Assembly: GCA_001800285.1 (NCBI GenBank)
Contig: MGVC01000005.1
Location: 18,476 to 82,475 of the forward strand
Origin: Elusimicrobia bacterium RIFOXYA2_FULL_39_19
GTDB lineage: Bacteria > Elusimicrobiota > Endomicrobiia > CG1-02-37-114 > XYA2-FULL-39-19
DNA length: 64,000 nucleotides
Direction of reading: 5' to 3'
The number at the start of each line of letters is the position of its first letter. The first letter of the stretch is position 1. Position numbers and translations under genes: made by a program. The notes under the pieces are model-generated. The model had not been told where the DNA came from. It was given only the letters and a program-made list of their open reading frames with translations, and made no database searches. Of this stretch, positions 6,000-45,658 are shown piece by piece.

Positions 6000-6040
6000 T
6001 GGAGTTTTCTCTTTCTTTGGGTTATTTAGGTTGATAAACG

Positions 6041-6403: not shown

Positions 6404-6426
6404 AGACGGCGTGCTATTATTTCTGC

Positions 6427-6981
6427 TTACTTTTCCTGCAATAAAATAACGTTGCAATTCTTGTCAAATTCCTTTAAAACTTCCTGGCTGACTCTTTTAT
6501 AAATCTCAAAATCTTCATACACTATGGCAAACACACCGCTTTCTGACGGCTCTGCATTAATTGAAAGAATAGTTTTACCGTCATTCCATTTCAGCGTGCC
6601 GTCATTTATGCAGGCAGGCCCATAAATTGCATTATAATAATCGCATATTTTTCCGTGAAACCCGCAAAATTCATCCATAGAATCATTATCATTTATGGAA
6701 TAAATTGTATGTATGCTGTACAACTGCCTGTCGTAAAATATCAGATTAACATATTTCACATATTTGTTATCAACGTCGTTTAACAGTACATTGCCCCAAT
6801 GTTTACTGCTTTCCATATCCTTTTTATAGTTGCCGGTAAAAACCAGGTTGCTGAAACTGGTACCCAGCGTGTAGCCGTAAAGAGTGCGTTTCAGGCTTGG
6901 GCTTGAACGAAGAAGGGCCTGAGCGTTTAACATACTCATAAAACCGGATAAAACAATTAAAAACATTATAATCTTTTTCAT
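6427..6981 (-). CDS. Secreted Cys-containing hypothetical protein (signal peptide)
   Basis: N-terminal MKKIIMFLIVLSGFMSMLNAQA signal peptide; 184 aa; several Cys (CGFHGKIC, CIND). Lies directly downstream of the PorV-like gene on the same strand. Confidence 0.55.
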   Translation of the reverse strand: MKKIIMFLIVLSGFMSMLNAQALLRSSPSLKRTLYGYTLGTSFSNLVFTGNYKKDMESSKHWGNVLLNDVDNKYVKYVNLIFYDRQLYSIHTIYSINDNDSMDEFCGFHGKICDYYNAIYGPACINDGTLKWNDGKTILSINAEPSESGVFAIVYEDFEIYKRVSQEVLKEFDKNCNVILLQEK

Positions 6982-7070
6982 AAAGCCTCCATTTTTTATA
7001 ACACCCTCACCTCAATCCTCTCCGATGAGGAAAGGATGAAAACAGAAGTATAATTTTGTTTTAATAAGTC

Positions 7071-20100: not shown

Positions 20101-20917
20101 GTGTAACTAAATTCGGATAAACCCTTATTTCAGAACTTGTACCGGTTGATAACCAGATATCGTTGCCATTATAATTAAGAGCTTCTGTTGGATATGCTTT
20201 TACATAATGCGTTGCATAACCTGTCAGACCTGCCATTTCTGCATTAAAAACAGTTATGGTTGTTATACTTGAACCATTAATCAAACAAACATAATTTGTT
20301 TTTGATCCATATTGATCGGTAGATTCAACATACACTATGGGGTTTGCGTCAGAAATAGTATTCCATTGTAAATCTGTGGCTTTTATTGTTATGGCAAATG
20401 GTTGGCCTGCAGTAAATCTTGAAATCGGTGTTCCTGATTTTCCAGTTGAAGAACCCGGATTTTGTGTTTCGCCGGGAACTAAAATAAGCAACTTTGATGG
20501 ATCGGAAAGCGGGTAGGCTGTTGTATTATTTGAAACACCTGAAAATAATTCCAAGGGTCCTGAAGAGACCCAGATTCTAAAATAGTATAACTTATCGCTT
20601 TGAAGGCCTGTTATTACGTAATTCTGTCTGTTCCCGGAATTAACAGAACCTGTTGATAATACCAGATTTCCGCTTGTGCCCGTACTCCAGGCAATACTTT
20701 CAAAAGTTGATTTTTGAATTTCATACCTGCTCCCAACGGGTATAGTAAATGGGCCTGGATAGGTCCAAATTAAACGGACCTCATAAGAGTTCTGACCGGT
20801 AACAGCCGAAAGATCAGTTACCGCTAAAGATTGAGCAAATATGTTTTGAATACTTATAACAAGTATAAGAATACAAAACATAATTCTGATATTTATCACT
20901 TTATTCTTAAACATCAT
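8183..20917 (-). CDS. Giant (4244 aa) secreted repeat protein with T9SS C-terminal sorting domain (adhesin/surface-layer-like)
   Basis: Single uninterrupted 12.7-kb ORF. N-terminal signal peptide MMFKNKVINIRIMFCILILVISIQNIFAQS. Roughly 8 tandem ~110-aa repeats containing L-x-I-L-x-PGE-T...GKTG...QTAG-x-F-x-VTV-x-A-x-D-x-(W/Y)-N. Later modules with recurring [YF][FY]I[TA]YD(I/V)S motif. C-terminus VYPNPY...KIYIYTVSGELVFDS...GTFNWDVKNNNGSELASGGYLAVIVSSTGERKVFKLGIIK matches the Por_Secre_tail/T9SS CTD pattern. Ser/Thr/Gly/Asn/Tyr-rich. Confidence 0.85.
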   Translation of the reverse strand: MMFKNKVINIRIMFCILILVISIQNIFAQSLAVTDLSAVTGQNSYEVRLIWTYPGPFTIPVGSRYEIQKSTFESIAWSTGTSGNLVLSTGSVNSGNRQNYVITGLQSDKLYYFRIWVSSGPLELFSGVSNNTTAYPLSDPSKLLILVPGETQNPGSSTGKSGTPISRFTAGQPFAITIKATDLQWNTISDANPIVYVESTDQYGSKTNYVCLINGSSITTITVFNAEMAGLTGYATHYVKAYPTEALNYNGNDIWLSTGTSSEIRVYPNLVTRYHVILPNEVPAPGKPPYGENVTQQPIGDGTGGKNYSVSFQTAGVVFPVTVRVTDNYYNLCSTAVMGGVSVTVTDPYCSYSRSQGLTMGQNVWNNVMMNTASTWTVRATGSLGTYDSNIVNIIPGSAKRLRILAPGELPDAGNISTRGRMSNNYPTSHKAGESFNVTVDACDDYYNSVTTTGINVSIITDDLYDTHPSTKTLFSGTTTFGITLVTKKNTIITATTDYCSNYKYDYTQSIAITTNVPYRIQILVPGETHVDGKVTGSQPGKTEASNPTAQVAGVGFKTTVLCLDQCYNQTDENPTLTLMSDGADGDPNDPQVTGRSIWVSNGQYILDDSEKWVFSTSSNTGWRIRMSAFSWVEGEGYPGIMVNSQPSSKVPVVSNTASKLLVLLPGQNFDMNSPYGKTGSPSQQTAGAPFDVTVAITDSNFNIVSGAEGTIVLYTPTDPYNVEPAQITITGTDPGYKTASFTTGLKRAATYHYAVAEELYGTYTKYPNSAPDYTVSTFTVLPGTPNHLQIILPGETPAWGLNVSTANGKTGSPVTQTAGTVFEVTVNLVDNYYNTYNKGIFPSLPGITMPEVTVETNDPYDANSSTSPLGDISASNTFQIQLKTAATWHMLWTKDVDGSDPRYITDVSSRQFTVNPSSPAFLLVVVPGETHVPGKWNIAPYGRTDTQPTVHTAGDAFNIDVVLTDIWYNRIMSGVDMPSCTVTTWDYQDSEPTIQCLAFGSRAFSVRPLTASSSWTCVSVDWSTAAVKYTSKESSQIRIWPDAAYYMQGTSYIDPVRGSTWAYAGSDYNVRINVKDRYHNICSTGSTRYTGEVQFLAEIAPTDFDNSLQNPEPLPGSGGEHYVFTDADAGSHLFTIQLKKAGTRWINWRQSTDSLIDANRSGYSNRPVIEVRPGDPSKFAFAIPSPWTDPIYVKAGISGGVPNRQQVKAFIADSYENQVSSSNISAVLSVVDVFGSSGTIKDASGNVITSTTTDSNGEVGGLGKELYYEVSTTGGHYAKVQVSTAAGATITGKSVNIMTTGGDLYRFQFVTTPSDIEASAGNIKSTVFTFEKRDYWNNPTGETNIVSLSIGTQLKTDSPSVLNSQKKYWNKTTDTMLSMYDVAIPIWSAAVWPVPAANSQASFRYSDMYASWPAGEDGSQGTATAALPARPSIGKWTASVEYGIYVGSTTFNVNPGAITQVGFDVIPSTTLPLLAGIVYNNQNSLQVLEIETQDTYGNPKAVNVDTTMNLQSDSGAGNSLRIDYLHRLTFESEVDTIATTEYGRNYSFSLTSSPWMHTSTASISAGQYATQFWYADTKASKTYPPYNIAASTMPHVKASSGSWETPGSGQYVPITASPIKKLAIISSHQILAAGTTSSAFLLQTQDKFSNPSPVITGEEVMSIFDLNSTGTGNVRFASPNITSGWVAKPAVDIVTLNIGDDTTSFYMIDTNLGNFQITAQNPAKTDWAVAVQTYSVVAGNPHHFVFITESRRLIAGTTIAYTGSGNLGSVVSTYSVQGYNPFSSAVLPVPLSSYSNRVQTVTVITIQLRDQSDNVTISSDATSIVYTCTNSTSARAGENPLKNLMLSADWPSICEGGFLPGIIPPGSSEHSIYFFDTKAGTSTLRAEGTCGSIQLVSATQNQYITPAPARFFTIHHSYPLTNPLPVNSNGTVTVKARDRFGNVASGDSTNGQYYKGIIKFAHTGSTTAVTLRAMPGSATYYAYTESDSGVWQGLQVINQMQESLKISATHYASPVTQALDYPADGVVYGWTNDSTRVETAHSDANLVTSGIKVTPILDPENLLRGSNYLSRVISKKVYQGDGDIVENFQPFGMAGLTMVTLPVEANLTEKLEQIKVEKFGNTPSSSISKMSLYYDASGNYYFDPELVSGGQPTDTKLCDAEYDAGTDAWYFRNLSVKPEVSVNTLPKTYFIAVRIATSATTGTYFGLRLQSYQSIQTSGTIGVSQANFEIVTTTWAVEKSPPKVYAQLTDIAAYYQLEGTTQPITYSYMQQGESDIGMLRVAFSAPMFQGAISEIKVGRTGTGQDYDIVGVKIYMDGKDSSPNDGRIDAGSNPNGALEPGGDDALTNWVPFTDRSAQCMLSTPQLIDCTSRYFFITYKIENSATPGYTHGAQINGITLLEGAMQSYASIESTKVVVTATVDELNVYNVNKQETSVSSVNFTVTGVVTQGDANITVMKLTMATVQRTGLWGGLKLDRSIYRNATSGVPEGTLSLPTDVDKIQLWYDSNNDGMFEVTDSMVVDQNPQFSLMEFPVSELAESINESASVIEVADIGVFFPPFCSVPKAPGKLIIDDNGDPSKLEIVTYTGVDEDNNLFTGVVRGQDKTTAKSHTSGAIVSGPARLDIVGDVSGVQEIRQTPKNYFITFDYSPVCTVDASLKLGVEIPSTGYFTINSPDYMGNVQAQVGLRSPRNNQWIGTEWAATGWTESYVSQVKEYPDDVLVKPTDYIYTQYLVQGSVDNVMAQFTLETDLSEALWYAIRIYSTGTASYDGGAVQEEVPVVKVWYDANNDRMLNKSPVTPYFYAGTDYDVLVGSGTFSNAGDALATLIRFNSSKVQEIITAARAGVAKSQRYFITYDISETALTTNPRTGDPKNLGVRLTAESFPTDEDNLVQTEDDFISEPDNLDDIGLPWKSTLKTIASSPRTIFVKSAPIFSDDDPKETGTLSTYEVPRLSGNLSAGADVLYLFSNDSLGRPTPTLAIPASGYAVIESEIIKYTGKTANSITGITRGVLGSFAASHSSGVVFGVQVTQGVKNFAVEKLDLWADGFQVEMGTITITRTTPSYLLFGADSDLLNIKVYRDDNGNSRLDRFASPEYRGIVTADTLVGSGVYDNSRGRLYLNDPAINRGYILVTTTPTAYFITYDVSPSAKFSHPLISWQNEIIGAEITGEDKIGVNHPSEEMRHRVSTYVPIGLGEIPAFPIKTANMPIVATVDTVYITPSSELMSTVERYAENVPVIQLSMKTNRNTALWESIKVNLTGTGVDADVSKIKIWKVITSTSEYSVFESTVMINSQPCGLITYGSDTFTEKAATLLLKTEDNYYDARTITATLQTYYLTYDISQFAQISKTVGASILDKTYFTVQVPDGVEFLWPTAPFITQTAEIKEVQVAVSATVSDSAYYVHFASGAFQSQSNVEMMRLKLRTDKSNCNWDAIQVERTGTGGPLDQTKPEGRNSDVKYIKIFRDANYNNILDADDQCISEAETKISSLCSDGVYYNYISIYTPLPFDLIVESTITLTGTFPTGQQQLLVKAGDEIMRYSLAGTTITPTGPKPFLRIVERGKYGTVRKQLNSGDLIKKVDMFDLSNDLSKTKMIYLTNIQKLNPSNQTYFIAYDMGDNAVAGNTIGLKIPDSGWIKLRLPHDVSPLLVLETNTGVQLGNSTSFDYCKTSLLPVTPIGLIVKSENYAPVYTKYGSKNVPLMLLRLKTNTNHALLTNITLKQTGTVETSLIPGKGQGDFSCLSIWKEATSAAFPYGDGKFDATTDVFISSIPHSTGANPNMNFVSGMASLSIESTGLYISTAEVKLYIVGDVGYTDLSMNSTENDYTGIRLEEFSGLTIVPQTMVSDKNNTFPYKSSEFRITNISNYVDLPKVEITAPKEGEKISGNRITLTSEITSGESSDIRYVYFQYRKASEDEWHNIYSTGSLFTNPDATYPYNYFWDVSNESDFLQGNYQLRCVAYDKTGNYDNNPETVNVVIDRISPDMEEKIQNGVPEKTQKIYNNVENSIKLADINKKHFTEIIIPEGALSGSFDLVKVAINPLSIPSSDRKYKSAGMFRSIELASGQKTLLKNVTIIIAYADEDNDGIIDDTDMREENIKILYYDESSRIWKKDSETTVDKINNTASIQVGHFSLFGIFAAASNNLDNVLVYPNPYVPYDGADDNGIPYSQGNSQSGIVFENLTEAVKIYIYTVSGELVFDSYIESSGTFNWDVKNNNGSELASGGYLAVIVSSTGERKVFKLGIIK

Positions 20918-21166: not shown

Positions 21167-21238
21167 TTGAGTTTACGACACTGTAACCTTACTGCGGTTT
21201 TTGGCGGCCTGGCGGTCATTGGACATTCCTCTTTTTTA

Positions 21239-21330
21239 GGCGTCTGCGCTTCAACTCCCTAGAACCGTTGGAGTCAGGCGTCCTTTAGACCCATAGCTTT
21301 GCGCCCGTCGGTTTCCCGGCGTTTGCTTTT
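21239..21330 (-). promoter_or_regulatory. Candidate c-di-GMP-I (GEMM) riboswitch aptamer upstream of giant T9SS protein gene
   Basis: Minus-strand AAGCAAAC-GCCGG-GAAA-CCGAC-GGGCGCAAAGCT-ATGGGTCTAAAGG... aligns with Vc2 GEMM core GGGCAAAC-CAUUC-GAAA-GAGUGG-GACGCAAAGCC (GCAAAC, 5-bp P-stem with GAAA tetraloop, then CGCAAAGC junction). Tetraloop-receptor-like TATGG/CTAAAGG follows. A -35 TTGACA lies just upstream and a terminator hairpin ~70 nt downstream. Confidence 0.4.
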
Positions 21331-21514
21331 ATCAATTTTTGTCAGTTTTGGTTTTGTAGAGCCAAGGTAATTTGTGCTTTTTGTCACACCCTGATATGTA
21401 TATAGTATGGAAAGATAGTAAAGTCAAGGCTTATTTACATAAACTTTACCGATGATTACTGCGGATTTGGGGTTTTAGGATTTGAGGTGACTAAAATTTC
21501 TGCTATTTGGTGTG

Positions 21515-33623: not shown

Positions 33624-34343
33624 TTAGGCCTCGGTTTTTTCTATTTCTTTGGCAAGAATTACAGCTTCAGCTACGGCACGAAGGGTTTTACGGGCATCCA
33701 TACTTTTTTTCTGCAGCAGCCTGTAGGCATCTTCTTCAGAATGACCATACTGTTTCATAATGATACCTTTGGCTTTTTCTACAAGCTTGCGGGTTTCAAG
33801 CTCTTCTTTTAAAATATTTGATGTGACCAGCAGGTTCGCATTTTCTATAACTACGGCCGCCTGGTTTGCAACAGTTGTTAAGACAGCTATTTCTGAATCA
33901 GTAAACTTATGAAAAAATGAAGTATAACAATTTAAAGCTCCAATGGGTTTACCTTTTACGTCCAGCGGCACGCACAGCAAGGACTTTAAACCCAGTTTTT
34001 TTGCCATATCCTTAAATTTAAACTCCGGTTCATTTAAAACATCTAAAACCTGAATAGGTTTATTTTCCTTGAGTACTTTACCTGCAATGCCTTCCCCTAT
34101 TTTTAAAGAACCCTTTTTTATATATTCCTCACTCATGCTTTGGGTAGCTTTAATGTCCAGGGCTCCCTGCTTTACATCAAATAACATTATTGAACAGATC
34201 TCTGATTTCATTACCTGTGCGGTTACGGTGACAATAAGCTTTAAAATATCTTCCAAGTAAAGGTCTGATGTGATGGCTTTGCTGATTTTTGAGACAGCGT
34301 TAATGAAATCATTGTGGTCAGTCTTGTTTCTTGTTTTTTTCAT
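33624..34343 (-). CDS. GAF-domain plus ANTAR-domain RNA-binding antiterminator regulator
   Basis: N-terminal GAF-like region. C-terminal AKGIIMKQYGHSEEDAYRLLQKKSMDARKTLRAVAEAV matches ANTAR consensus (AKGiLM...EeAy..Lr..Sm..n.kL..vAe.v). Confidence 0.7.
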   Translation of the reverse strand: MKKTRNKTDHNDFINAVSKISKAITSDLYLEDILKLIVTVTAQVMKSEICSIMLFDVKQGALDIKATQSMSEEYIKKGSLKIGEGIAGKVLKENKPIQVLDVLNEPEFKFKDMAKKLGLKSLLCVPLDVKGKPIGALNCYTSFFHKFTDSEIAVLTTVANQAAVVIENANLLVTSNILKEELETRKLVEKAKGIIMKQYGHSEEDAYRLLQKKSMDARKTLRAVAEAVILAKEIEKTEA

Positions 34344-35377
34344 TGTATTTTTGATTGTATTTCTGCAATTTTGCAGGCTGTCTTTGATTTTCCGGTTATT
34401 TTTCCTGTTTCAAGCAGCGCAATTCCCGGGCATCTTCTACACGCTTTAATGTTACTACATTTCAAACACTCTTTGCAATCTTTTGTACTGTATTTTCTAA
34501 GCCTTTTTGCTTTTTTTGATTTATGCCATATATTTCTGAAACTTTGATTTTTCAAATTTCCAAGCGGATATAATAACTGCAAACATGGATAAACAATTCC
34601 CTGCGGTGAAATACCGGCAAAAACTTTGCCTGCATTGCAAAACAAATCAGGAACATCCTGTAATGAAACATCTGTTGAAACTTCGTACTGGTTTATCAGA
34701 TATTTATTTAACTTTTTATCCGTATAAATGGTTTTAAGCTTTTCGGCGCTTAACTGAAACCTCTGGATTGTGCAGTCACCGTTATTTTGGGGGGCAAGGA
34801 CCGGGTCAAGCCTGTATTCAAACTTATTTTTTTTGGCAAATTTTATCAGCCATTTGTAATCGTTGAAGTTTATATTCAGAAGCGGCGCTTTAATTCTAAC
34901 CGGAACCTTGTATTTCTTTAATAATTTCAATGCAACAAGTGTTTTTTTAAAAGAATTGTTTTTTGCCGTTATCTGTTCATGACTTTTTTTTCTTCCGTAC
35001 AAACTTATCTCTACAGCGCTTAACCCGATTTCCGATAACATTTTTGCGTGTTCTTTTGTTATTAAAGTACCGTTTGAAAAAAGCCGGAGATCAAAATTTA
35101 ATTTCCTGGCGTAAGCGCATAATTCTAACAAGTCTTTGCGTAAAAATATCTCTCCACCGGTAAAACATAAGTACAGGCAACCGGCGCGGGCAAGCTTATC
35201 AAGGATTGTTTTTACTTCCTTCGTGTTTAATTCGCTTTTGTTTTGTTTTATCAGGTAGCAATGCAGGCATTTCAGGTTACATCTATGCGTAAGTTCAAAT
35301 ACGGTATAAAGCGGCAGGTTATTTTTATATGCAGCTTCTGTTAAACTGTTTGATGGGCTAATCATTTTGTATTTCAA
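34340..35377 (-). CDS. Radical SAM / SPASM-domain peptide-modifying maturase
   Basis: CNLKCLHC (CX3CX2C) near N-terminus. C-terminal Cys-rich SPASM-type CKECLKCSNIKACRRCPG; 345 aa. Confidence 0.75.
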   Translation of the reverse strand: MKYKMISPSNSLTEAAYKNNLPLYTVFELTHRCNLKCLHCYLIKQNKSELNTKEVKTILDKLARAGCLYLCFTGGEIFLRKDLLELCAYARKLNFDLRLFSNGTLITKEHAKMLSEIGLSAVEISLYGRKKSHEQITAKNNSFKKTLVALKLLKKYKVPVRIKAPLLNINFNDYKWLIKFAKKNKFEYRLDPVLAPQNNGDCTIQRFQLSAEKLKTIYTDKKLNKYLINQYEVSTDVSLQDVPDLFCNAGKVFAGISPQGIVYPCLQLLYPLGNLKNQSFRNIWHKSKKAKRLRKYSTKDCKECLKCSNIKACRRCPGIALLETGKITGKSKTACKIAEIQSKIQ

Positions 35378-35624
35378 TCAAACCTTTTTCTTTCAATTCT
35401 GAAATAAACCCTGTCACATCATCAGCAGCTACTGTTTTTTCAACATCATATTCCTTTAACAGTAAATCAACCAGTTTGGCGGCACTGCACTTTTTATGCA
35501 GTTTCTGCCAGATAAAAGCGCCCACCTCATCCAATGAATGCAAACAAGATGTTCCTGTGTTTACAATATAGGCCTTGCCGTCAATAACTCTCCAGGCAAT
35601 ATTTTTTGAATGGCTTATTAGCAT
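35358..35624 (-). CDS. PqqD-family RiPP recognition element (peptide chaperone)
   Basis: 88 aa; WRVIDGKAYIVNTGTSCLHSLDEVGAFIWQKL...YDV...DDVTGFISELKEKGLI fits the PqqD/RRE pattern. Overlaps neighbours in operon. Confidence 0.65.
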   Translation of the reverse strand: MLISHSKNIAWRVIDGKAYIVNTGTSCLHSLDEVGAFIWQKLHKKCSAAKLVDLLLKEYDVEKTVAADDVTGFISELKEKGLIEIQND

Positions 35625-36412
35625 AATTTCTCCGCAGAAATATTTTTAGGAAAAAATAGTGTTTGAAAAATCAGCTTGTTTTTCATTGAGAGAATTGTAT
35701 CTATCATTTTACTTATCAATTTTGGGTCTTTACTGAAAAACAGTATGTTGGGAAGCAGTTTTTTTATAAATGCCGGGCTGAATTCATTTTTTACAAAATA
35801 CTTTTTGCTCTTTTGTATAAAACAAATCTTTTTAAGCTTCAGGGTCAGATTTGTTTTTCCGGGTTTCAGTTCTCCCCAAAATGGTGTACTGGAAGCTTTT
35901 ATTATTCCGTTAATATTTTGCACAAGAACCAGCTCATCAGAAAGTACAGCTGAAGGTTTAAACTTTTTTGCTATGGTTGACTTGCCTGCATTTGTTTTAC
36001 CAATAAATAAATTAGCAGCATTTCTGAATTTAATACCGGAAGCATGCACTAAAAAACCGTTATTTATTACAGAAAACACCGAAAAAACAACTCTCAGCAG
36101 GGAATCAAGCGAATATATGTTTTCCCTTAGTTGGGCAACAGCCTTTAATTTAGAAGTGTCAAAACTTAATTGAAAATCATTTCTTGAAAAACAATGAACA
36201 CCTTTTATGTTTTTATATGTTACTTCCTTATTCTGATTCAATTTATCAGGAACAAATACTAATTTTAAATCAAGAACTTTCTGTTTTTTGAATGATCTTA
36301 CAAAAAATGGCCCATATCTTTCCGTTATTTTATTTAGGATACTACGATTTACAGAATTATTTATCTGTAAATTTAATGCAAGTTTTGTACCTAAAAGAAT
36401 TTTATAATTCAC
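35618..36412 (-). CDS. HPr-kinase-related P-loop kinase (HprK-related kinase A-like)
   Basis: GKTNAGKST Walker-A in the C-terminal half, and size/context as HprK C-terminal-domain homologues found with PqqD proteins. Confidence 0.5.
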   Translation of the reverse strand: MNYKILLGTKLALNLQINNSVNRSILNKITERYGPFFVRSFKKQKVLDLKLVFVPDKLNQNKEVTYKNIKGVHCFSRNDFQLSFDTSKLKAVAQLRENIYSLDSLLRVVFSVFSVINNGFLVHASGIKFRNAANLFIGKTNAGKSTIAKKFKPSAVLSDELVLVQNINGIIKASSTPFWGELKPGKTNLTLKLKKICFIQKSKKYFVKNEFSPAFIKKLLPNILFFSKDPKLISKMIDTILSMKNKLIFQTLFFPKNISAEKLC

Positions 36413-36441: not shown

Positions 36442-37554
36442 TCAGATGGTTTTTACCCACCATCTTCTGGCTTTCAGTTCCAGTGCGAGTTTTTTATCTT
36501 CTAATTTCAATTTTGTTTCATCTACAGCTTCCGTTATATAGATAACGCTGTTTTTGCTTAAATCCACCAGCTTTTCTGTTGGCACTCTTTTATTTTCACT
36601 GTCAATTACTATTTTAAGTTTGGGCCTTGTGGGTAGTCCGGGGTTTGAGCCTACAACCCGGGCTATTTCGTCAGTATTTACCCGGACATAACTGCCTATA
36701 GGATAAAGTGAAACCTTTTCTATGAATAACTTTACCAGATTCATATCAAAATTCATGTCAGCCATATCAATCATTTTCTTAAGCGCGTCATGTGACAGTA
36801 TGCTTTCTCTCCAGGACCGCGGATGGGTAAATGCTTCAAACACGTCAGCTACGCTGATAATTTTTGACATTATGTCTATTTCTTCTCCGGAAAGACCTTT
36901 TGGATAACCGGCGCCGTCTCTGCGTTCGTGTACCTGGGATATAATTACGGAAACTGCGGTTTTGGTTTGCGGAGACATTATTACATTTTCCAGCAATTGT
37001 TTATTATACATAGTGTGTTTTTTGATTTCGCTGAATTCTGAACCATTTACCTTGCCTTGTTTTGCCGCAAGTTCTACAACTTTAAGCATTCCGATGTCAT
37101 GCAGGAATGCTGAAATGGTAAGTTTTTCCAGCTGTTCTGAAGAATAGCCGTAGGCAAAACCAAGGGCTGTAGAAAGAATAGCGGTATTAACACTGTGGCT
37201 ATGCAGATATAAGTCCGGCGTAGTATATCTGCACATGGCAATCAGTTCATCATTGTTGGCTACTATTAAAGCTATTATTTTTCTTGCTACATTTAAAAGC
37301 GGGTTTATGTCTACTTTGTTTTTTTCAATATTCAGAAGGAACTTTCTTTGCGTATCAATACCTTCCGTATAGACTTTTTCCGCTGAATCTACACGGTGTA
37401 TCTCCTGAACAAACTGTACCTTGTCCAGTTGGGGCTCTTCGGTTTTTTCTTCAACAATTTCTTCGGGTTCTAATTCGGATACTTCTTGAGGGGTTAAATC
37501 TTCAGTGGATTTATTTTGGACGGATTTTTTCTTAAGTATGTCTGAAAGTCGCAT
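36442..37554 (-). CDS. HD-GYP domain c-di-GMP phosphodiesterase-like protein
   Basis: HSVNTAILSTALG...LHDIGM...HERRDGAGYPKGL, the HD and GYP signatures. Confidence 0.75.
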   Translation of the reverse strand: MRLSDILKKKSVQNKSTEDLTPQEVSELEPEEIVEEKTEEPQLDKVQFVQEIHRVDSAEKVYTEGIDTQRKFLLNIEKNKVDINPLLNVARKIIALIVANNDELIAMCRYTTPDLYLHSHSVNTAILSTALGFAYGYSSEQLEKLTISAFLHDIGMLKVVELAAKQGKVNGSEFSEIKKHTMYNKQLLENVIMSPQTKTAVSVIISQVHERRDGAGYPKGLSGEEIDIMSKIISVADVFEAFTHPRSWRESILSHDALKKMIDMADMNFDMNLVKLFIEKVSLYPIGSYVRVNTDEIARVVGSNPGLPTRPKLKIVIDSENKRVPTEKLVDLSKNSVIYITEAVDETKLKLEDKKLALELKARRWWVKTI

Positions 37555-37614: not shown

Positions 37615-39687
37615 TCAACCGTCGTAGGGCAGTTCAATGATAAAGGTAGTTCCTTTCTTTAGTTCGCTTTCAATTTCTATATTCCCGCCATGCTCTTTAA
37701 TAATTCTGAAACTTGTAGATAAACCAAGCCCGGTACCTTTTGTTTTGGTAGTAAAAAATGGTTTGAATAACTGTTTTATGTTTTCTTTGGAAATACCAGG
37801 CCCGGTGTCTTTTACTTTTATCTTGAGATTTTCTTTGTTACTGTCTTCCAGCATTATACTGATAATTCCCTGGCCGGGAATAGCCTGTATGGCATTTAAT
37901 ATAATATTCATTAAAACTTGTTTTATCTGGGCGGGGTCTGCATAAATAGTAATGTCTTTTCTCGAATATTCTTTGACTACTTTTATATTTTTCTTTGCCG
38001 CTTCATGGCTTAAAAGCATAAGAATATTTTCAATTATATAATCTACATTTATTCTTTCAAACTGGTTCTTTTGAAGCCTGCTATAATCTGAAAGGCTATT
38101 CAATATTGTTTCCAAATGATCCAGTTCCTGAGGCACAATACTGCTGAACTTTTCCCGGTACTCTTTATCTTCAAATTTCCGAGTTAGAAGCTGAGTAAAA
38201 GTTTTTATAGCTACCAGCGGATTTTTTATTTCATGTACTACTGTGGAAGCCAGTGTGCCCAATGCTACCATTTTATCCGCCTGATACATGCTTTTTTCAA
38301 AATTACGCAATTGTTCGGTAAGCCTGGCGTTTTCTATAGCAACTGAAGACTGGGATGCTATTGAAGAAATAAAATCCAGGTCCTGCCTTAAAAAAGCATC
38401 TTCCGACATTTTTTCTCCAACACAAATTATTCCTATAAGTTCTTTATTTAATTTTACGGGAACCATGAGCATACTTTTAAGTTTAAATATTTTTCTTTCA
38501 AATTCACCTTTAATTTCATTAAGTTCGTTAAAAAATATTTTGTTTTTGTGTTTTTCAAACCAGCTTGTAATGTAGTCACCTTTTTCAAAACACACTTCTT
38601 CACTGTTAAGTAGATTAAAATTTCTGGACATTCTTATTGTATATTTTTCATTTTCTTCATTAATAAGAAGAATGGAAATCTTTTTTACAAACAGGGTATT
38701 GGTTATGGTATCAGCTATATGATCCAGTAAGGGGCCCAGCACCATCAAAGAACTTAATTTGTCGCTGAAGGCAGATAATATTTTCTGAGAATCATACTTT
38801 GTCTTGAAAAACAGTTTATCTACTATGTTTTGAAGCCAATTACGCACAGGAACAAAACCTGCAGCAACAATAATAGCAGTAGCCGTATTAACAAGAATTG
38901 AATTAAACCTTAAATATTCCAGGCCAAATGCCAGAGAAACGGCAACTATTAGTGTATATATACCTGCTACTATGGTAGTCAGTGCTGTATAAACTATAGC
39001 GCGTTTAATGACTACGCGGATATCAAAAGCCTGGTATTTTAGAATGGAATAAGCAATAAGCCCGGTCCAGATAATATTTATAAATCCGCTAACAGGATAA
39101 ATTTCAAATCCAAGAGAAAGAGCAAACAATGTAAATCCGAAAAAAACAAAAAGACTGATACCGATAAAAAAATATTTTAACTGGTTTTTAACCATGAATG
39201 ATTCTGTAACTTTAAAGGTCTTAACAAGATGGGCTAATCCATAGGATATCCAGAAAGCAACATTTAATGCAGACAGGATGTAAAGCAGAGTAGGTTTTGG
39301 TGCATAGGTCACACCTACTCTAATGTATTCTTTTGTCATTAACCCAAAAAAACCCAATATTGTAAAAAGTATTCCTATACCGTAGGACAGGTATATTAGC
39401 TTTTTGTTTCTTTCACTTATATTTCTTGATAATATCAGCATAAAATGGAATCCAGCTGCTGGTCCTAACAAGAAACCAAATCTGAATGTATCTGCCCATG
39501 TTTTGGCTAATACAGCATTTGGCATGACGTATAGTCCAAATAAGTCAAAAGACCACATTGCAATACAAAACGCAAAAAAAGCAAATATTCTGTTAAGCGG
39601 GCTTTTTGTATTTTTTTGAAACACAAAAACAGACAGGACTAAATTGACTATTGTTGAAGTTAACCAGGGAATGCAATGTATGTTCAT
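37615..39687 (-). CDS. Multi-TM sensor histidine kinase (HisKA + HATPase_c)
   Basis: N-terminal ~7 TM helices. H-box STVVHEIKNPLVAIKTF. G-boxes DTGPGIS and GTGLGLSTSFRIIKEHGG. Confidence 0.8.
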   Translation of the reverse strand: MNIHCIPWLTSTIVNLVLSVFVFQKNTKSPLNRIFAFFAFCIAMWSFDLFGLYVMPNAVLAKTWADTFRFGFLLGPAAGFHFMLILSRNISERNKKLIYLSYGIGILFTILGFFGLMTKEYIRVGVTYAPKPTLLYILSALNVAFWISYGLAHLVKTFKVTESFMVKNQLKYFFIGISLFVFFGFTLFALSLGFEIYPVSGFINIIWTGLIAYSILKYQAFDIRVVIKRAIVYTALTTIVAGIYTLIVAVSLAFGLEYLRFNSILVNTATAIIVAAGFVPVRNWLQNIVDKLFFKTKYDSQKILSAFSDKLSSLMVLGPLLDHIADTITNTLFVKKISILLINEENEKYTIRMSRNFNLLNSEEVCFEKGDYITSWFEKHKNKIFFNELNEIKGEFERKIFKLKSMLMVPVKLNKELIGIICVGEKMSEDAFLRQDLDFISSIASQSSVAIENARLTEQLRNFEKSMYQADKMVALGTLASTVVHEIKNPLVAIKTFTQLLTRKFEDKEYREKFSSIVPQELDHLETILNSLSDYSRLQKNQFERINVDYIIENILMLLSHEAAKKNIKVVKEYSRKDITIYADPAQIKQVLMNIILNAIQAIPGQGIISIMLEDSNKENLKIKVKDTGPGISKENIKQLFKPFFTTKTKGTGLGLSTSFRIIKEHGGNIEIESELKKGTTFIIELPYDG

Positions 39688-39787
39688 AAATTATTAATTT
39701 TATAAAATATAAATTTCAAACCTTAAATAGTAGTATATCAAATGAACATGCATTTTCAAAACATCAGCAAATATCTTCTTTACTTGA

Positions 39788-41125
39788 CTAATATTTGTAC
39801 GCCTCTTTTATTGACATATACAACTGTTCATAGATGGGTTTTGAAACCGGGACCGACTTACCAGCACTTCCTTTTGTATAGGTTCTTAAGTACAAATCCG
39901 CCAAGCATTCATAAAATTTTTCTCTTGGTAATTTCGTAGGAAATATTGAATGAATAAAATCAAAAAGATTATAATTGTAAGTCACAAATTCTTTGTACCT
40001 TTCATGATACAAATCTGTTCCGGGTAACGGCGTCAGGACAGAAAATATCGGGTGCGGAAGATTCATTTTTTCAACATAATCACCTAACTCTATAAAATCC
40101 TTTTCCAAGTAATCGGGATTTACAATGAACTGGGCAACTACTGTAATATTATTTTGGTGCAAAATATTTATAGCTTCTTCATTGTTTTTTACTGAATTGC
40201 TTTTGTTAAAAACCTTTAGTTCTTCATCCCTGAAAGACTCAATACCCAACAGTACCATTTCCGCTCCAATCTCTTTCCATTTTGCTATTAAATCGGGATG
40301 TTTTACTATAGTATCTGACCTGGCAATAAGTTTGTATGTCTTTTTTATTCCTTTTTCTTTTAGTAATTCGTACAGTTTTTCTGCTCTGTTAACATCATGC
40401 AGAAAATTATCATCACAAATACTTATATAAGGTTCTTCTATAGTTTGAATCTCTTTAACAATACTTTCTGCGCTTCTTAATCTATACCGGCCCCTTTCAT
40501 GCTTCCAGACTGCACAGAAATTACATCTAAACGGGCAACCTCTTGAAGTTAGTAAAGATGCTACCGGCCTCCAGGCTGCCCTGAAATATTTTTCACGGTA
40601 TTTTTTGGTTAAATGTCTTACTGGGAAGGGCATATCGTCAAGATTTTCCATAAAATCTCTTTCCTGAGTTATTTTAAGTTTACAATTTTCCTGAATACCT
40701 ATACCCTTTATTTTTGAAAAATCTTTTTTAAATTCTACTGCATCAACTATTTCACTGAATGTCGCCTGGCCTTCACCAATCACAACAAAATCTATGCAGG
40801 CTTTATTAAAATCCTCAGGAATTAGTGTAGGGTGGTGGCCGCCTACTACAGTAATAACATCTTTATTGAATTTTTTAATGTTTTCAAATATTTCACAAGC
40901 CGCATATACATCGGGAGTTAAAGCTGTTATGCCTACAATATCTGGTTTAAATGTGTCCAGGTCTTCTTTCAATAGTTTATCTATCCTCATATCCAGGATT
41001 TTAACGTTATGTTTATCTAAAACACCTGCTGCAATTGTTTCCAGAGCTAAAGGTTCTGGCAAATATAACACCCCGGATCCTACTAAATTTTCATTTAACG
41101 GCGGTTGAATAAGTAAAATGTTCAT
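39788..41125 (-). CDS. B12-binding-domain radical SAM enzyme (class B)
   Basis: N-terminal Rossmann-like B12-binding region (MNILLIQPPL...). CPFRCNFC radical SAM motif; 445 aa. Confidence 0.7.
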   Translation of the reverse strand: MNILLIQPPLNENLVGSGVLYLPEPLALETIAAGVLDKHNVKILDMRIDKLLKEDLDTFKPDIVGITALTPDVYAACEIFENIKKFNKDVITVVGGHHPTLIPEDFNKACIDFVVIGEGQATFSEIVDAVEFKKDFSKIKGIGIQENCKLKITQERDFMENLDDMPFPVRHLTKKYREKYFRAAWRPVASLLTSRGCPFRCNFCAVWKHERGRYRLRSAESIVKEIQTIEEPYISICDDNFLHDVNRAEKLYELLKEKGIKKTYKLIARSDTIVKHPDLIAKWKEIGAEMVLLGIESFRDEELKVFNKSNSVKNNEEAINILHQNNITVVAQFIVNPDYLEKDFIELGDYVEKMNLPHPIFSVLTPLPGTDLYHERYKEFVTYNYNLFDFIHSIFPTKLPREKFYECLADLYLRTYTKGSAGKSVPVSKPIYEQLYMSIKEAYKY

Positions 41126-41926
41126 TTAATTCTCCTGTAATAAATTTATTTCCAAACATTTTCTGTTAAAAAGATCTACTAACGAACAGTTCGGTACTAC
41201 TATCGGTTTTCTTTTGTCTAATAACATTAAAACAGTTTCAAGCACCAACAGAGATCCCGCTAAGGAACATATAGGGCTTATTACTGAAGGAGTTATATCC
41301 CTGTTTGTCAGCTCAACTATTTTGTTGTGAGGAATATAATCGGGAAGTTTCACGCTGAGTTTTTTGAATATTTTATAAAAATCCGGCTCGGTGCCGGCAT
41401 CAACACCAAAAAACTTTTCCATTGTCAAACCTTTTGGGTCAAACACCAGCAATGGACTGCTATAAGCAATAGCACCTGACAAAATAACATAAAGATTTTT
41501 CTCCCGGGCCTTCGGATAAAGGGCCATACGGGCTTCAAAAGTGAAAAACTCTATGGCATCTATTACCAGATTGGCGCCCTGCAAAAACTCATCCACATTA
41601 TCTTTATTTACTCCTTCAGAGAAAACATCTACTTTAATTTCTGGATTGATATCTCTAACTATTTCAGCTATTACTTCCGCTTTTTTTCTGTTTAAGGTTT
41701 TAATGGAAGAACCAAACTGCCTGTTAAAATCTGTTGCTGAAAAAACTTCAGGGTCTGCGATTTTTATATGCCCCACACCCAATCGGGCAAGGCGTTCTGC
41801 CGGAAAGCCCCCTACTCCACCGACTCCCGCTATGCAGACAGTAGAATTTTTTAGTTTTTCCTGTTCTGCTTCTGTAAGCAGGCCTATGTTTCTGTTGGTA
41901 ATTTCAGTATATGCGGGTTTATTCAT
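41126..41926 (-). CDS. ThiF/MoeB/HesA-family E1-like adenylyltransferase
   Basis: CIAGVGGVGGFPAERLARLGVG nucleotide-binding motif; 266 aa. Confidence 0.7.
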   Translation of the reverse strand: MNKPAYTEITNRNIGLLTEAEQEKLKNSTVCIAGVGGVGGFPAERLARLGVGHIKIADPEVFSATDFNRQFGSSIKTLNRKKAEVIAEIVRDINPEIKVDVFSEGVNKDNVDEFLQGANLVIDAIEFFTFEARMALYPKAREKNLYVILSGAIAYSSPLLVFDPKGLTMEKFFGVDAGTEPDFYKIFKKLSVKLPDYIPHNKIVELTNRDITPSVISPICSLAGSLLVLETVLMLLDKRKPIVVPNCSLVDLFNRKCLEINLLQEN

Positions 41927-42483
41927 AGTATAAAAGGAATCAGGGCATACGTTTCTTTACGGTATTGCCTGTATTCATCCCCCAATTTAGAAATTAGTGC
42001 TTTTTCTTCAAACGGAATTCTGGAATAAATAGCAAGCACCATCAGTACAGCTCCTGAGGAAAGCATGTAATATGCATTTGCTATCAAAGCTACCGCTATC
42101 ACATCAATTACATTGCTTAAATAAACGGGATGCCTTAAAAACTTATACGGGCCTTTTCTAATTACCCTATGGTTTTCCCGTATTTCTATATCAGCGCTCC
42201 AGAATTCTGATAAAGTTGTTGCTCCCCACCTTTTGAGAAAAAAACGCGCAACCCACAACACCATACCTATGGCAGCAACAGTATAATTTATCTGCCTGTT
42301 TACTACCAGAAATTCCACAACTACCAGTACAAGGTAACTGGAATAAGCAATACCCAGAAAGTTAATGGTCCACTTGTCGCGGATTTCTCCTTTAGTTTTT
42401 TTCTTTTCATAAAGACTTATTTCAAAATACCTAAGCAAAATCATAAAAACCATAAACAACGCAAAAAAAATCTGATAATTCAT
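41923..42483 (-). CDS. Isoprenylcysteine carboxyl methyltransferase (ICMT)/PEMT-family membrane methyltransferase
   Basis: NHRVIRKGPYKFLRHPVYLSNV C-terminal motif; multi-TM, 186 aa. Confidence 0.65.
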   Translation of the reverse strand: MNYQIFFALFMVFMILLRYFEISLYEKKKTKGEIRDKWTINFLGIAYSSYLVLVVVEFLVVNRQINYTVAAIGMVLWVARFFLKRWGATTLSEFWSADIEIRENHRVIRKGPYKFLRHPVYLSNVIDVIAVALIANAYYMLSSGAVLMVLAIYSRIPFEEKALISKLGDEYRQYRKETYALIPFIL

Positions 42484-42499
42484 GTCTTTTTTCTCCTTT

Positions 42500-43897
42500 T
42501 TAGAATAATCTTAAATTCATCAACTTACCTGAAAACAAATTTGATATTTTAAACTGCGAGGTTTTGCACAGCCCTCCACCGCTATTTCCGTACATTTCAG
42601 GAAAAATACCGGCATTAATAGCCGCAGTATTTTTTACACCCTGATAATCAACTCTTTTTACTATCATGGAGATATTATTCCCGCCTAAACCAAAAGAATT
42701 AATAAGAGCTGAATTAACTTCGTTTCTTCGGCTTTTATTAGGCACATAATCCAAATCACAGTCAGGATCTTCCTCTTCATAATTAATGGTTGGCGGCAGA
42801 TGGTTTTCCTGTATAGACATCAATGTTGCCGCCATTTGAATAGCGCCTGTAGAGGCAAGCGGCTGGCCTATCATGGACTTTATAGAGCTTACAGGTATAT
42901 CATAAGCAGATTCCCCGAAAACTTCTTTTATAGCCATAGTTTCTCTTTTATCCGACACCTGGGAGGAACTGCCATGCGCATTTACATAATCTATGTCTTC
43001 TGGCTCCAACCCGGATTCATCCAATGCAAGATTTATAGCTTTTACAACTTCCTTGCCTGTCGGTTCCATTTTAAAAATATTATATCCATCATTTGTTACA
43101 CCGTAACCTGAAACTTCCGCATACATCTTTGCTTTGCGTTTCATAGCAAATTCATAACTTTCCATTACTACCACTCCTGCCCCTTCTGATAAAATATATC
43201 CTTCTCTGGATTTTTCAAAAGGCCTGCTAACAGTTTTCGGGTTTTCTTTTCCTTTTCCTTTTGCCAGCACCTGAGCAGCACAGAACGTATCAAAAGCAAA
43301 CGGAGTAATAGGTGTTTCACTTCCTCCGGCTATTACCACATCGGCCCGGCCGTTTTTTATTAAATCATAACCATACGCTATTGCATTTAAAGCTGAAGAA
43401 CAACCGGTGCAAATGGTCATGTTAGGGCCTTTTATACGAAATTCCTGGGCTATTACACCCAGCGCTGTATTGTTGTTTATTACGCTTACACATAAAGGAT
43501 TAATACCGTTTACACCTTTTTCTCTGAAAACATCATACTGTTGTTCATTTAGTTCCTGGCCCCCAATAGAAGTAGCAAAAGATATACCTGTCCGGTAAGA
43601 CAAGTCCTCATCAGAACCGTCAAGTTTTAATGAAGCGTCATCTACTGCCATCCTGGTTGCCGCAAGGGCAAACTGCGCAAACCGGCTTAACCGCCGGCCC
43701 AATTTATAATCCATATACTTTGAAGCATCAAAATCTTTTACTTCTCCAGCTACCTGGCTGGGATATTCGCTTGGGTCAAATCTTGTAACCCTGCCAATTC
43801 CTGACTCACCTGAAACTGTTGAATTCCAAAACTCATCCTTACCTATGCCATTTGGTGCAATTACACCAATACCTGTAATAACTACTCTTTTGCTCAT
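42500..43897 (-). CDS. Beta-ketoacyl-ACP synthase (FabF/FabB-like) with ~50-aa C-terminal extension
   Basis: MSKRVVITGIGVIAPNGIG, active-site region ICTGCSSALNA, HGSSS, and FGLGGNN motifs. Confidence 0.75.
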   Translation of the reverse strand: MSKRVVITGIGVIAPNGIGKDEFWNSTVSGESGIGRVTRFDPSEYPSQVAGEVKDFDASKYMDYKLGRRLSRFAQFALAATRMAVDDASLKLDGSDEDLSYRTGISFATSIGGQELNEQQYDVFREKGVNGINPLCVSVINNNTALGVIAQEFRIKGPNMTICTGCSSALNAIAYGYDLIKNGRADVVIAGGSETPITPFAFDTFCAAQVLAKGKGKENPKTVSRPFEKSREGYILSEGAGVVVMESYEFAMKRKAKMYAEVSGYGVTNDGYNIFKMEPTGKEVVKAINLALDESGLEPEDIDYVNAHGSSSQVSDKRETMAIKEVFGESAYDIPVSSIKSMIGQPLASTGAIQMAATLMSIQENHLPPTINYEEEDPDCDLDYVPNKSRRNEVNSALINSFGLGGNNISMIVKRVDYQGVKNTAAINAGIFPEMYGNSGGGLCKTSQFKISNLFSGKLMNLRLF

Positions 43898-43958
43898 TCT
43901 GTCTTCACCTTTCCTTTAAGTATTTTAAATCCAATGAGAAGCGTGTTAAAACAGTATG

Positions 43959-43975
43959 CGCAATTAGTTTGCCAG
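43959..43975 (-). promoter_or_regulatory. Sigma54 (-24/-12) promoter driving KAS operon
   Basis: Minus-strand CTGGCAAACTAATTGCG = TGGCAA-N5-TTGCG versus consensus TGGCAC-N5-TTGCA. GG and GC are 10 nt apart. It lies ~60 nt upstream of the KAS ATG, with an AGGAAAGG RBS in between. Confidence 0.55.
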
Positions 43976-44002
43976 GCACCTTCCTATATAAACAAAAAAA
44001 GA

Positions 44003-44050
44003 GAAGCATACCTATTTGTGCATCAAGTACAAATAGGTATGCTTCTCAAA
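44003..44050 (-). terminator. Rho-independent terminator of NtrC-type regulator gene
   Basis: Minus-strand GAAGCATACCTATTTGT-loop-ACAAATAGGTATGCTTC followed by TCTTTTTTTG. Confidence 0.6.
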
Positions 44051-44073
44051 ATGTTTTTAAAACTCTAAAACTT

Positions 44074-45465
44074 CTATTTTGCGGATTGTATTCCAAGTAT
44101 CTTCATCTTATATATGAGGGTGTTTCTGTGAATACCCATTAATTTTGCGGCTTTTGTCTGGTTCCAGTTAACTTTTTCCAATATCCCTATGACAAACTTC
44201 TTTTCATACTGGCCGCAGACATAATTTACCAGGGACCTTTTTTCTTCGGGAACTGTTTCTTTATCAAACTCTTCAGGCATAAAAATATCTAATGGAAACC
44301 TGTTGTGTGTTATCACGCTATCTTTGCTTAATGCCACCATTCTTTCCACAATGTTTTTAAGTTCCCGCACATTTCCCGGCCAGTCATAATTTTTCAATAT
44401 GTTCATGGCCTGTTTGGAAATACTTGTGATATTCTTTGAAAACTTTTTATTGAAAAACTTTATGTAATAATCAATCAGAAGAGAAAGGTCTTTCTTCCTT
44501 TCACGTAACGGCGGAAGATTTATAGGAACTACGTTTAAGCGGTAATATAAATCTTCCCTGAACTTTCCATCCTTGATAGCTTTTTTAATATCCATATTTG
44601 TAGCTGAAATAATACGGGCATTTATTTTTAAATCTTTTATACCGCCTACGCGCTGAAATTCGCGGGTTTCAATTACTCTAAGCAGTTTTGACTGCAGGTT
44701 CATGGGCAGGGTGCCTATTTCATCAAGAAAAACAGTACCGTTATCCGCTAGTTCAAACTTCCCAAGTTTCTGGGAAATTGCATCTGTAAATGCGCCTTTT
44801 TCATGTCCGAAAAGCTCGCTTTCAATAAGGTTTTCTGGTATGGACGCGCAATCAACTACCACGAAAGGTCCATTCTTCCTGTTACTGTTATAGTGAAGGG
44901 CTTTTGCCACCAAATCTTTTCCCGTACCACTTTCTCCCAGAACCATTACATTTGAATCTGTTTTACACATTTCAAATACAAGTTCAAAGATTCTTTTCAT
45001 GGGTTCGCTGTTGCCGATTATATTTTCAAACGCAGTCGGTTTTATTTCAGATCTCAGATAAACTACTTCTTTATTGAGCCTTTTTCTTTCAAACGCTCTT
45101 TCTACAGACAAAAGCATTTCGTCGGCATCAAAAGGTTTCATGATATAGTCATAAGCGCCAAGTTTCATGGCTTCAATAGCGGTTTTCACTGTTTTTACGG
45201 CAGTAACTACGATTATTTCTACATCAGAATTAATGGCCCTTATTCTCTTTAAGGTTTCAAGGCCGTCCATACCTTCCATTAAAATATCAAGAATTATCAA
45301 ATCAACATTCTGTTTATTTACTACATCAATAGCGGCCGGGCCGCTGTTTACACCCAAAACATTGTACTTATCCAGCAAAACCTTGAATGTTTCAACAACA
45401 TTTACTTCATCGTCAACTACCATAACAACCAGCGAATCTTTGTCTAACAACTTCTTGTTTTCCAT
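44074..45465 (-). CDS. Sigma54-dependent response regulator (NtrC/AtoC family: REC-AAA+-HTH)
   Basis: Receiver domain (VVMVVDDE...). AAA+ GESGTGKDLVAKALH. ESELFGHEKGAFTDA (GAFTGA motif). C-terminal HTH. Confidence 0.85.
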   Translation of the reverse strand: MENKKLLDKDSLVVMVVDDEVNVVETFKVLLDKYNVLGVNSGPAAIDVVNKQNVDLIILDILMEGMDGLETLKRIRAINSDVEIIVVTAVKTVKTAIEAMKLGAYDYIMKPFDADEMLLSVERAFERKRLNKEVVYLRSEIKPTAFENIIGNSEPMKRIFELVFEMCKTDSNVMVLGESGTGKDLVAKALHYNSNRKNGPFVVVDCASIPENLIESELFGHEKGAFTDAISQKLGKFELADNGTVFLDEIGTLPMNLQSKLLRVIETREFQRVGGIKDLKINARIISATNMDIKKAIKDGKFREDLYYRLNVVPINLPPLRERKKDLSLLIDYYIKFFNKKFSKNITSISKQAMNILKNYDWPGNVRELKNIVERMVALSKDSVITHNRFPLDIFMPEEFDKETVPEEKRSLVNYVCGQYEKKFVIGILEKVNWNQTKAAKLMGIHRNTLIYKMKILGIQSAK

Positions 45466-45658
45466 AATAATCTCCTAGATTTGTACATTAATTTATGCAA
45501 TGATTATACCTTATTTGCCTATGTTTTTCAAGTATTCCAAATTTATCCAACCGCTTCTTTTAATAAATATTTTAAATATTTATTTCATTAAATATATATA
45601 ATAATTGATTTACGCTGTAAAATAATGTATATTAATTGAGAAAGGCGGGAAACTAAGG

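Follow-up and report, generated by a model that had tools for sequence, protein, structure and literature searches.

Introduction

HpnR/HpnP and the archaeal enzyme Gmm methylate unactivated carbons of lipids (PMC13459092), and in anammox ladderane-type clusters, FabF paralogues together with cobalamin (B12)-dependent radical S-adenosylmethionine (SAM) enzymes are proposed to synthesise an unusual fatty acid in the absence of oxygen (PMC13459092, PMC2649909). The PrsK/PrsR pair of PEP-CTERM regulation acts through sigma-54 promoters (PMC1569441). In Ralstonia, the methyltransferase PhcB makes a 3-hydroxy fatty-acid methyl ester that is sensed by the adjoining membrane histidine kinase (PMC8578825, PMC11960443). 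Here, we describe a gene cassette that resembles each of these systems in part. It lies on the minus strand of a 64,000-nucleotide (64-kb) stretch of contig MGVC01000005.1 from Elusimicrobia bacterium RIFOXYA2_FULL_39_19; this stretch is referred to as the window, and all positions are given in its numbering. A FabF-family ketosynthase with an altered active site and a B12-dependent radical SAM enzyme are flanked by a sigma-54 activator and a histidine kinase with seven transmembrane helices (7TM). The cassette probably encodes a dedicated pathway, controlled by sigma-54 and a two-component system, for a specialised lipid-like product. The clade of the ketosynthase, the synteny and the conserved promoter all support the proposal of the first-pass annotation of the window, namely a dedicated sigma-54/NtrC-controlled pathway and not housekeeping fatty-acid synthesis.

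The resemblance to the described systems is partial in each case. The radical SAM enzyme has the B12 domain and radical SAM core of HpnR/HpnP and Gmm, but no hopanoid or tetraether genes are found near the cassette. Ladderane-type clusters (TIGR04072) likewise have a FabF paralogue clustered with a cobalamin radical SAM enzyme; the cassette, in contrast, has no dedicated acyl carrier protein (ACP), FabZ or phytoene-desaturase-like genes and is framed by a two-component system and a sigma-54 promoter. PrsK/PrsR consist, as does the regulatory pair of the cassette, of a multi-transmembrane kinase with a GAF domain and a regulator with receiver, sigma-54 AAA+ and Fis-type helix-turn-helix (HTH) domains. 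The cassette pair, however, falls below the cut-offs for both families, has GAFTDA as the sigma-54 contact loop and has no exosortase, PEP-CTERM or polysaccharide genes beside it.

Organisation and conservation of the cassette

The unit spans 37615-45531 and comprises, in the direction of transcription, a sigma-70-like promoter, the activator gene, a terminator, a sigma-54 site, four closely packed genes and the kinase gene. The packed genes encode the ketosynthase, an ICMT-type methyltransferase, a ThiF-type enzyme and the radical SAM enzyme. The ketosynthase and ICMT genes are separated by 16 nt, the ICMT and ThiF genes overlap by 4 nt, and the ThiF and radical SAM genes abut. The gap of 100 nt between the radical SAM and kinase genes contains no terminator in a terminator scan. 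The domain calls and the spacing (gaps of 16 nt or less within the operon) agree with the five genes of the first-pass annotation, all of which are on the minus strand. It had closed the cluster at 39788-45465, however, and missed the partner kinase at 37615-39687, to which the unit continues. To the right of the activator lie the housekeeping genes glmS, carAB, purF and pyrG and a Liv-type transporter.

Related loci were collected through homologues of the radical SAM enzyme, the ThiF-type enzyme and the ketosynthase. The gene order activator, ketosynthase, one to four B12 radical SAM enzymes and 7TM-GAF kinase is repeated in 31 non-redundant loci, and the pairing of ketosynthase and radical SAM enzyme is its most constant feature. 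These four components form the core of the cassette. The ICMT gene is present in 18 of the 31 loci, and ThiF is a rare accessory member (four non-redundant loci); its place in the operon of the window, as annotated earlier, is correct, but it is not part of the core. Many uncultivated anaerobic bacteria have kept the cassette. It also occurs outside Elusimicrobia, on Nitrospirae and Thermodesulfobacteriota contigs, so that the synteny extends across at least three phyla. Literature searches found no description of it.

The tailoring genes differ even among close relatives, with one to four B12 radical SAM genes and with or without ICMT, ThiF and uncharacterised proteins. Such variation is typical of small-molecule pathways. 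Accessory proteins of 316, 484, 547 and 76 residues in the relatives have no Pfam match. Small open reading frames (ORFs) in the cassettes were considered as precursor peptides or carrier proteins and rejected, as they are Fis-like HTH regulators or spurious antisense ORFs. The neighbourhood of the related loci is rich in regulators (Fis-like HTH, PilZ, HD-GYP and extra response regulators). In some relatives, Y1-type (IS200-like) transposase genes lie within the cassette or close it (L085, 11365-12048; L001, 12969-13973).

The ketosynthase

The ketosynthase (42500..43897, minus strand; Pfam, NCBIfam and alignment) contains the N- and C-terminal ketoacyl-synt domains and resembles FabF in fold, length and three active-site residues: Cys166, His308 and Lys340 correspond to Cys163, His303 and Lys335 of Escherichia coli FabF. 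It scores 465.8 bits against the FabF equivalog TIGR03150 (cut-off 493.75) and 446.6 bits against the broad PRK07314 'KAS II' subfamily (cut-off 387). The best match among solved ketosynthases is Bacillus subtilis FabF (380 bits), and identity to E. coli FabF is 37%. In the alignment to the E. coli enzyme, the second catalytic histidine (H340) is replaced by Gln345 and the gatekeeper Phe400 by leucine. Glutamine is found at the His340 position in 80 of the best 120 homologues, and in those 80, Phe400 is replaced by Gln, Leu, Met or Ala, whereas the cysteine, His303 and Lys335 are retained. In a neighbour-joining tree, the Gln-type sequences form one group, which includes 11 His-type sisters; one of these (L120) sits in the same cassette. 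Judged by its sequence, the ketosynthase belongs to a clade distinct from housekeeping FabF. Literature searches found no description of a Cys-His-Gln ketosynthase.

The surroundings of the gene also differ from those of fabF, as it lies behind a sigma-54 promoter with B12 radical SAM genes and not in a fab operon. No acpP, fab, reductase or dehydratase genes lie beside it in the window or in the Elusimicrobia-type loci, where it is without exception a member of this cassette. The grouping with housekeeping FabF that would have spoken against the first-pass annotation is thus not seen. That annotation had also drawn attention to a C-terminal tail of about 50 residues. The tail (residues ~417-465) is a real extension of the ORF, but it is lineage-specific, being common only to one 98%-identical relative; other family members have 408-460 residues, with unrelated tails or none. 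Two Chloroflexi loci (L028 and L047), in which a ketosynthase lies beside a distant radical SAM relative, were set aside, as the ketosynthase keeps His340 and resembles ordinary FabF. A split ketosynthase gene in L083 was rejected as biology because it reflects an assembly gap (a run of N).

The score above the PRK07314 cut-off and the best solved matches, which are genuine FabF enzymes, would suit a coincidental neighbourhood of a housekeeping FabF, a ThiF/MoeB protein of the molybdopterin or thiamine type and unrelated adjacent genes. We regard this as extremely unlikely. The enzyme has lost the catalytic His340, its gene has no fab or acp neighbours, the ThiF-type protein is far below the ThiF/MoeB equivalog cut-offs and has no CxxC motifs, and synteny is kept in 31 loci from at least three phyla together with a conserved sigma-54 promoter.

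The cobalamin radical SAM enzyme

The radical SAM enzyme (39788..41125, minus strand; Pfam and NCBIfam) is of class B, the cobalamin-binding class, and has the CxxxCxxC motif at C197, C201 and C204. It scores 66 bits for PF02310 (B12-binding) and 76.5 bits for PF04055 (Radical_SAM). The best NCBIfam match, over nearly the full length, is HpnR (TIGR04367; 239 bits against a cut-off of 650), and other families score 176 against 481 (BchE) and 60 against 360 (TIGR04072). Among solved structures, the AlphaFold2 model (pLDDT 92) is closest in fold to AprD4, OxsB, MgmA, CysS, TsrM and TokK, at 16-20% identity. As a guide to function, this fold search was set aside, as it returned the class B architecture only and the matched enzymes are of varied chemistry. 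Methylation is the likely reaction.

Orthologues with 50-64% identity follow the ketosynthase in nearly all loci. A genome scan anchored on the radical SAM enzyme gave a different picture of the wider family: in 79 of 80 loci, the hit is a distant relative (35-49% identity) that stands alone, in many phyla, and has no conserved neighbours. The cassette is therefore not a general property of the family. This distribution also shows that the chemistry of the wider family is not intrinsically dependent on a ketosynthase, and it can be read, together with HpnR and BchE as best family matches, in favour of a substrate other than a fatty acid. The enzyme would then act on a tetrapyrrole (as BchE), a polyprenoid or hopanoid (as HpnR) or a cofactor, and the ketosynthase would supply a side chain or be functionally separate. 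We consider such a substrate unlikely, given that the HpnR and BchE scores are far under their cut-offs, that no locus contains squalene-hopene cyclase, tetrapyrrole or prenyl genes and that the pairing with the ketosynthase is so constant. The comparison with hopanoid and ladderane systems advised by the first-pass annotation gave the same picture, with the HpnR and TIGR04072 cut-offs both missed and no hopanoid, ACP or FabZ genes in the loci.

The ICMT-type and ThiF-type enzymes

The gene at 41923..42483 (minus strand) encodes an integral-membrane SAM-dependent methyltransferase of the ICMT/PEMT family (PF04140, 61.2 bits against a gathering threshold of 24), with a further match to the PEMT family PF04191. 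Its alignment to Methanosarcina ICMT (Ma-ICMT, PDB 4a2n) covers the whole protein, and its score against the protein-S-isoprenylcysteine O-methyltransferase equivalog NF040696 is 95.6 bits (cut-off 160). The ThiF/E1-type adenylating enzyme (41126..41926, minus strand; PF00899, 134 bits) belongs to a PRK08223-like group and has the nucleotide-binding motif. It is far under the equivalog cut-offs for ThiF (83.5 against 275) and MoeB (63.8 against 376.6), and TcdA is its nearest relative among solved structures. A CxxC zinc motif is absent from the sequence, and the operon contains no small ubiquitin-like (ThiS/MoaD-like) ORF. Carboxylates are the substrates of characterised ICMT and E1/ThiF enzymes alike. 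Malonomonas rubra has a ThiF homologue of 42% identity (L115, 8001-8876) in a PEP-CTERM/exopolysaccharide locus, alongside a large TPR protein, MMPL, DUF1302/DUF1329 and a FeeM-like acyltransferase.

E1-like proteins occur in pathways for ribosomally synthesised and post-translationally modified peptides (RiPPs), for example MccB and PaaA, and several of the B12 radical SAM families that the cassette enzyme matches weakly are RiPP methyltransferases. Close to the cassette, the window and L081 also have a set of three genes with PqqD and SPASM proteins. The cassette could accordingly be pictured as maturing a peptide or lipopeptide, with B12 radical SAM C-methyltransferases and an E1-like enzyme acting on a ribosomal precursor and the ketosynthase adding a lipid. 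This is very unlikely: no small ORF is conserved in or next to the operon across the 31 loci, the operon genes of the window lie no more than 16 nt apart, and the PqqD/SPASM genes accompany only two loci.

The activator, the kinase and the sigma-54 factors

The activator (44074..45465, minus strand; Pfam and NCBIfam) is a sigma-54 activator of the response-regulator type, with receiver, Sigma54_activat (PF00158, 235 bits), AAA lid and HTH_8 (Fis-type) domains. It is below the equivalog cut-offs for NtrC (TIGR01818, 419 against 558.6), PrsR (TIGR02915, 415 against 502.6) and AtoC (NF008469, 455 against 714); on its domain content, it is NtrC-type by architecture only. The loop that contacts sigma-54 is GAFTDA in place of GAFTGA. 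GAFTDA or a close variant is present in 30 of 31 cassette activators, and two unrelated activators in the same fetched loci have GAFTGA. The GAFTDA loop is known in functional sigma-54 activators such as DVU2106 (PMC4641369) and is also present in VfmH of the quorum-sensing Vfm system (PMC10714721). We therefore rejected it as a unique signature of the cassette.

The partner histidine kinase (37615..39687, minus strand; Pfam and NCBIfam) has a PrsK-like architecture, with a 7TM N-terminal region (HisKA_7TM) followed by GAF, HisKA and HATPase domains. It matches PrsK (TIGR02916) over its full length at 202 bits, against a cut-off of 300, and no exosortase or PEP-CTERM genes occur in the cassette loci. 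Wherever a locus is long enough to tell, the kinase is the last gene of the cassette. Of all parts of the cassette, the sensor regions diverge most, with a median identity of 36% for the 7TM region and 29% for the GAF domain, compared with 57% for the ketosynthase. 7TM-GAF sensors flank ketosynthase genes under different outputs, a histidine kinase in the window and a GGDEF domain with a PilZ-ketosynthase fusion in L118. In the latter locus (4382-12647), an ACP and an NAD(P)-binding protein come after the fusion, which is of the His type, and the flanking genes encode a 7TM-GAF histidine kinase and a 7TM-GAF-GGDEF protein.

In relatives, a short sigma-54 paralogue (353-419 residues), in which the DNA-binding domain alone is detectable, is encoded ahead of the cassette (L081, 5285-6544; L086, 4506-5573; L119, 6806-7975; L114, 2482-3543; L001, 5881-6954). 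The window has glmS at this place.

Promoters and terminator

A motif scan located a sigma-54 promoter, TGGCAA-N5-TTGC (-24 GG, -12 GC; cTGGCAAACTAATTGCg), at 43960..43974 on the minus strand, ending 62 nt ahead of the ketosynthase ATG (43897). The -24/-12 promoter reported upstream of this gene in the first-pass annotation is therefore present. The pattern TGGCA-N6-TTGC has only this one match in the 64 kb, with both strands counted, and a mean of 1.06 in shuffled sequence; since the shuffles give about one match, the single match is not significant by count, and position and strand carry the weight. About 29 of 35 related loci have the same -24/-12 motif ahead of the first gene of the operon, and we estimate its chance rate at ~0.002 per 260-nt AT-rich upstream region.

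The activator gene ends in an intrinsic terminator of its own, as annotated earlier, with a hairpin of 20-bp stem followed by T7 (44001..44047, minus strand; sequence and terminator scan). The order of terminator and sigma-54 promoter is kept in most relatives. An element within the stem, TTTGTAC-N-TGCACAAATA (44013-44033), is similar to one that precedes the promoter in L001, L085 and L086 and is a candidate binding site of the activator. A sigma-70-like promoter, TTGAAA-17-TATAAT (45503..45531, minus strand; 11 of 12 matches in a consensus scan, a pattern match only), lies about 40 nt upstream of the activator ATG (45465).

Proposed pathway

We propose that the kinase phosphorylates the activator, which would then open the sigma-54 promoter. 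The Cys-His-Gln ketosynthase comes without its own ACP, reductase or dehydratase. Primary fatty-acid synthesis would supply it with an acyl thioester, on which it would carry out one or a few Claisen condensations. The B12 radical SAM enzyme, of which relatives have up to four, would methylate or otherwise alter an unactivated carbon of the chain, and the ICMT-type membrane enzyme would methyl-esterify the carboxyl end. In this genome, the ThiF-type enzyme would activate the carboxyl group with ATP for the formation of an amide, an ester or a ring. C-methylation or chain extension, the chemistry named in the first-pass annotation, is an inference. As product, we envisage a fatty-acid derivative that is small, hydrophobic and methylated. 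Sensing of this product by the flanking 7TM kinase would close an autoinduction or lifestyle-switch loop with the logic of PhcB/PhcS of Ralstonia.

The full loop, in which the kinase senses the methylated fatty-acid derivative, is put forward by analogy and tentatively; we give it somewhat less than an even chance. It is favoured by the variable tailoring genes of close relatives, by the two tailoring genes from carboxylate-modifying families, by the 7TM-GAF sensors that accompany ketosynthase genes under different output domains and by a neighbourhood rich in regulators and cyclic di-GMP (c-di-GMP) parts. The likeness to PhcBSR, and to the Cqs, Lqs and Vfm systems, is one of logic only, a signal-synthesis gene beside a sensing kinase, with no sequence relationship shown. 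Neither a ketosynthase nor a radical SAM enzyme is part of those systems, and signalling by the cassette is a hypothesis. PhcB is a soluble methyltransferase.

Remodelling of membrane lipids is nearly as likely as a signal, though we hold it to be possible and no stronger than that, and the evidence separates the two poorly. Here, the radical SAM enzyme would modify the growing acyl-ACP, for example by methyl branching, and the ketosynthase, its gate open through the loss of Phe400, would elongate a chain that housekeeping FabF would refuse. The 7TM kinase would sense the state of the membrane, in which it is embedded, and the ICMT/PEMT-type enzyme would methylate a head group, consistent with its match to PF04191. 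A minimal core of ketosynthase and B12 radical SAM enzyme, without other fatty-acid synthesis genes, fits a hand-over to the housekeeping reductase/dehydratase cycle. The top NCBIfam match of the radical SAM enzyme is a hopanoid methylase, and the well-studied lipid radical SAM enzymes (HpnP/HpnR, Gmm, Tes and Grs) all act on bulk membrane lipids (PMC13459092). FabA/FabB and DesK/DesR offer a parallel, with a chain-modifying enzyme and a dedicated elongating ketosynthase in the former and a multi-transmembrane kinase that controls a lipid-modifying gene in the latter. The cassette, however, has no FabA or desaturase homology, its regulator is sigma-54-dependent and its tailoring genes vary strongly in number and kind between close relatives. 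The ThiF-type enzyme has no obvious role in remodelling, and a dense island of regulators and c-di-GMP parts, with a dedicated sigma-54 paralogue in relatives, is much control for homeoviscous adaptation.

Several points weigh against the pathway ending in a sensed, methylated fatty-acid signal. Identity of the radical SAM enzyme to solved enzymes is only 16-20%, and its scores are far below all NCBIfam cut-offs, so that methylation is not demonstrated; non-methylating chemistry, as in BchE, OxsB or AprD4, is possible. ICMT-family enzymes also methylate phosphate (LmtA), thiols (MddA) and amines (PEMT). The cassette contains no carrier protein, thioesterase or exporter, which leaves the release of the chain unexplained. 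Rapid divergence of transmembrane sensor domains is common, and the divergence of the kinase is thus weak evidence for the sensing of a ligand. Sigma-54 promoters are silent without an active activator, and a basal level of signal would need another source. Neither rpoN nor a sigma-54 paralogue is present in the 64-kb window.

A wider version of the signal loop joins the short sigma-54 paralogue of the relatives, the GAFTDA activator and the 7TM-GAF kinase into an orthogonal sigma-54 circuit. Such a circuit might drive lipid-signal autoinduction in uncultivated anaerobes, with a new quorum-sensing-like class of signal made by a Cys-His-Gln ketosynthase and a B12 radical SAM enzyme. We regard this as doubtful.

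Other features of the window

Downstream of the kinase, an HD-GYP-type (HD_5) phosphodiesterase is encoded at 36442..37554 (minus strand; Pfam). It is a possible c-di-GMP output, weakly associated with the cassette: a 48%-identical counterpart lies downstream of the kinase in L081, and other loci have PilZ/GGDEF neighbours. The genes downstream of it (34340-36412, minus strand) encode a 264-residue protein with no Pfam match, a PqqD-family protein and a radical SAM/SPASM protein, a set that resembles SynChlorMet peptide maturation. The same three genes lie downstream in L081, where the 41%-identical counterpart of the 264-residue protein is annotated as ScmC.

A c-di-GMP-I riboswitch (Rfam RF01051; 61 bits against a gathering threshold of 35) is located at 21200-21337 (minus strand), just upstream of a giant ORF that starts at 20917. 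This ORF (8183-20917, minus strand) encodes 4244 residues, has no Pfam match at E ≤ 1e-5 and is followed by a gene for a UPF0164/FadL-like outer-membrane protein (7071-8186). At 2848-5498 (minus strand), one protein joins a HypC/HupF N-terminal domain to a radical SAM domain, and the adjoining gene encodes a HydE/HydG-like protein with radical SAM and BATS domains.

Conclusion

The cassette defines a predicted active-site variant of the ketosynthases, Cys-His-Gln with loss of the gatekeeper phenylalanine. It also ties the little-understood 7TM-GAF (PrsK-like) sensor, whose stimulus is not known (PMC1569441), to a specific set of enzymes, which makes the question of the sensor's ligand directly testable. 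If the proposed reading is true, the cassette would point to new lipid chemistry among anaerobes, for which oxygen-dependent enzymes are not an option.

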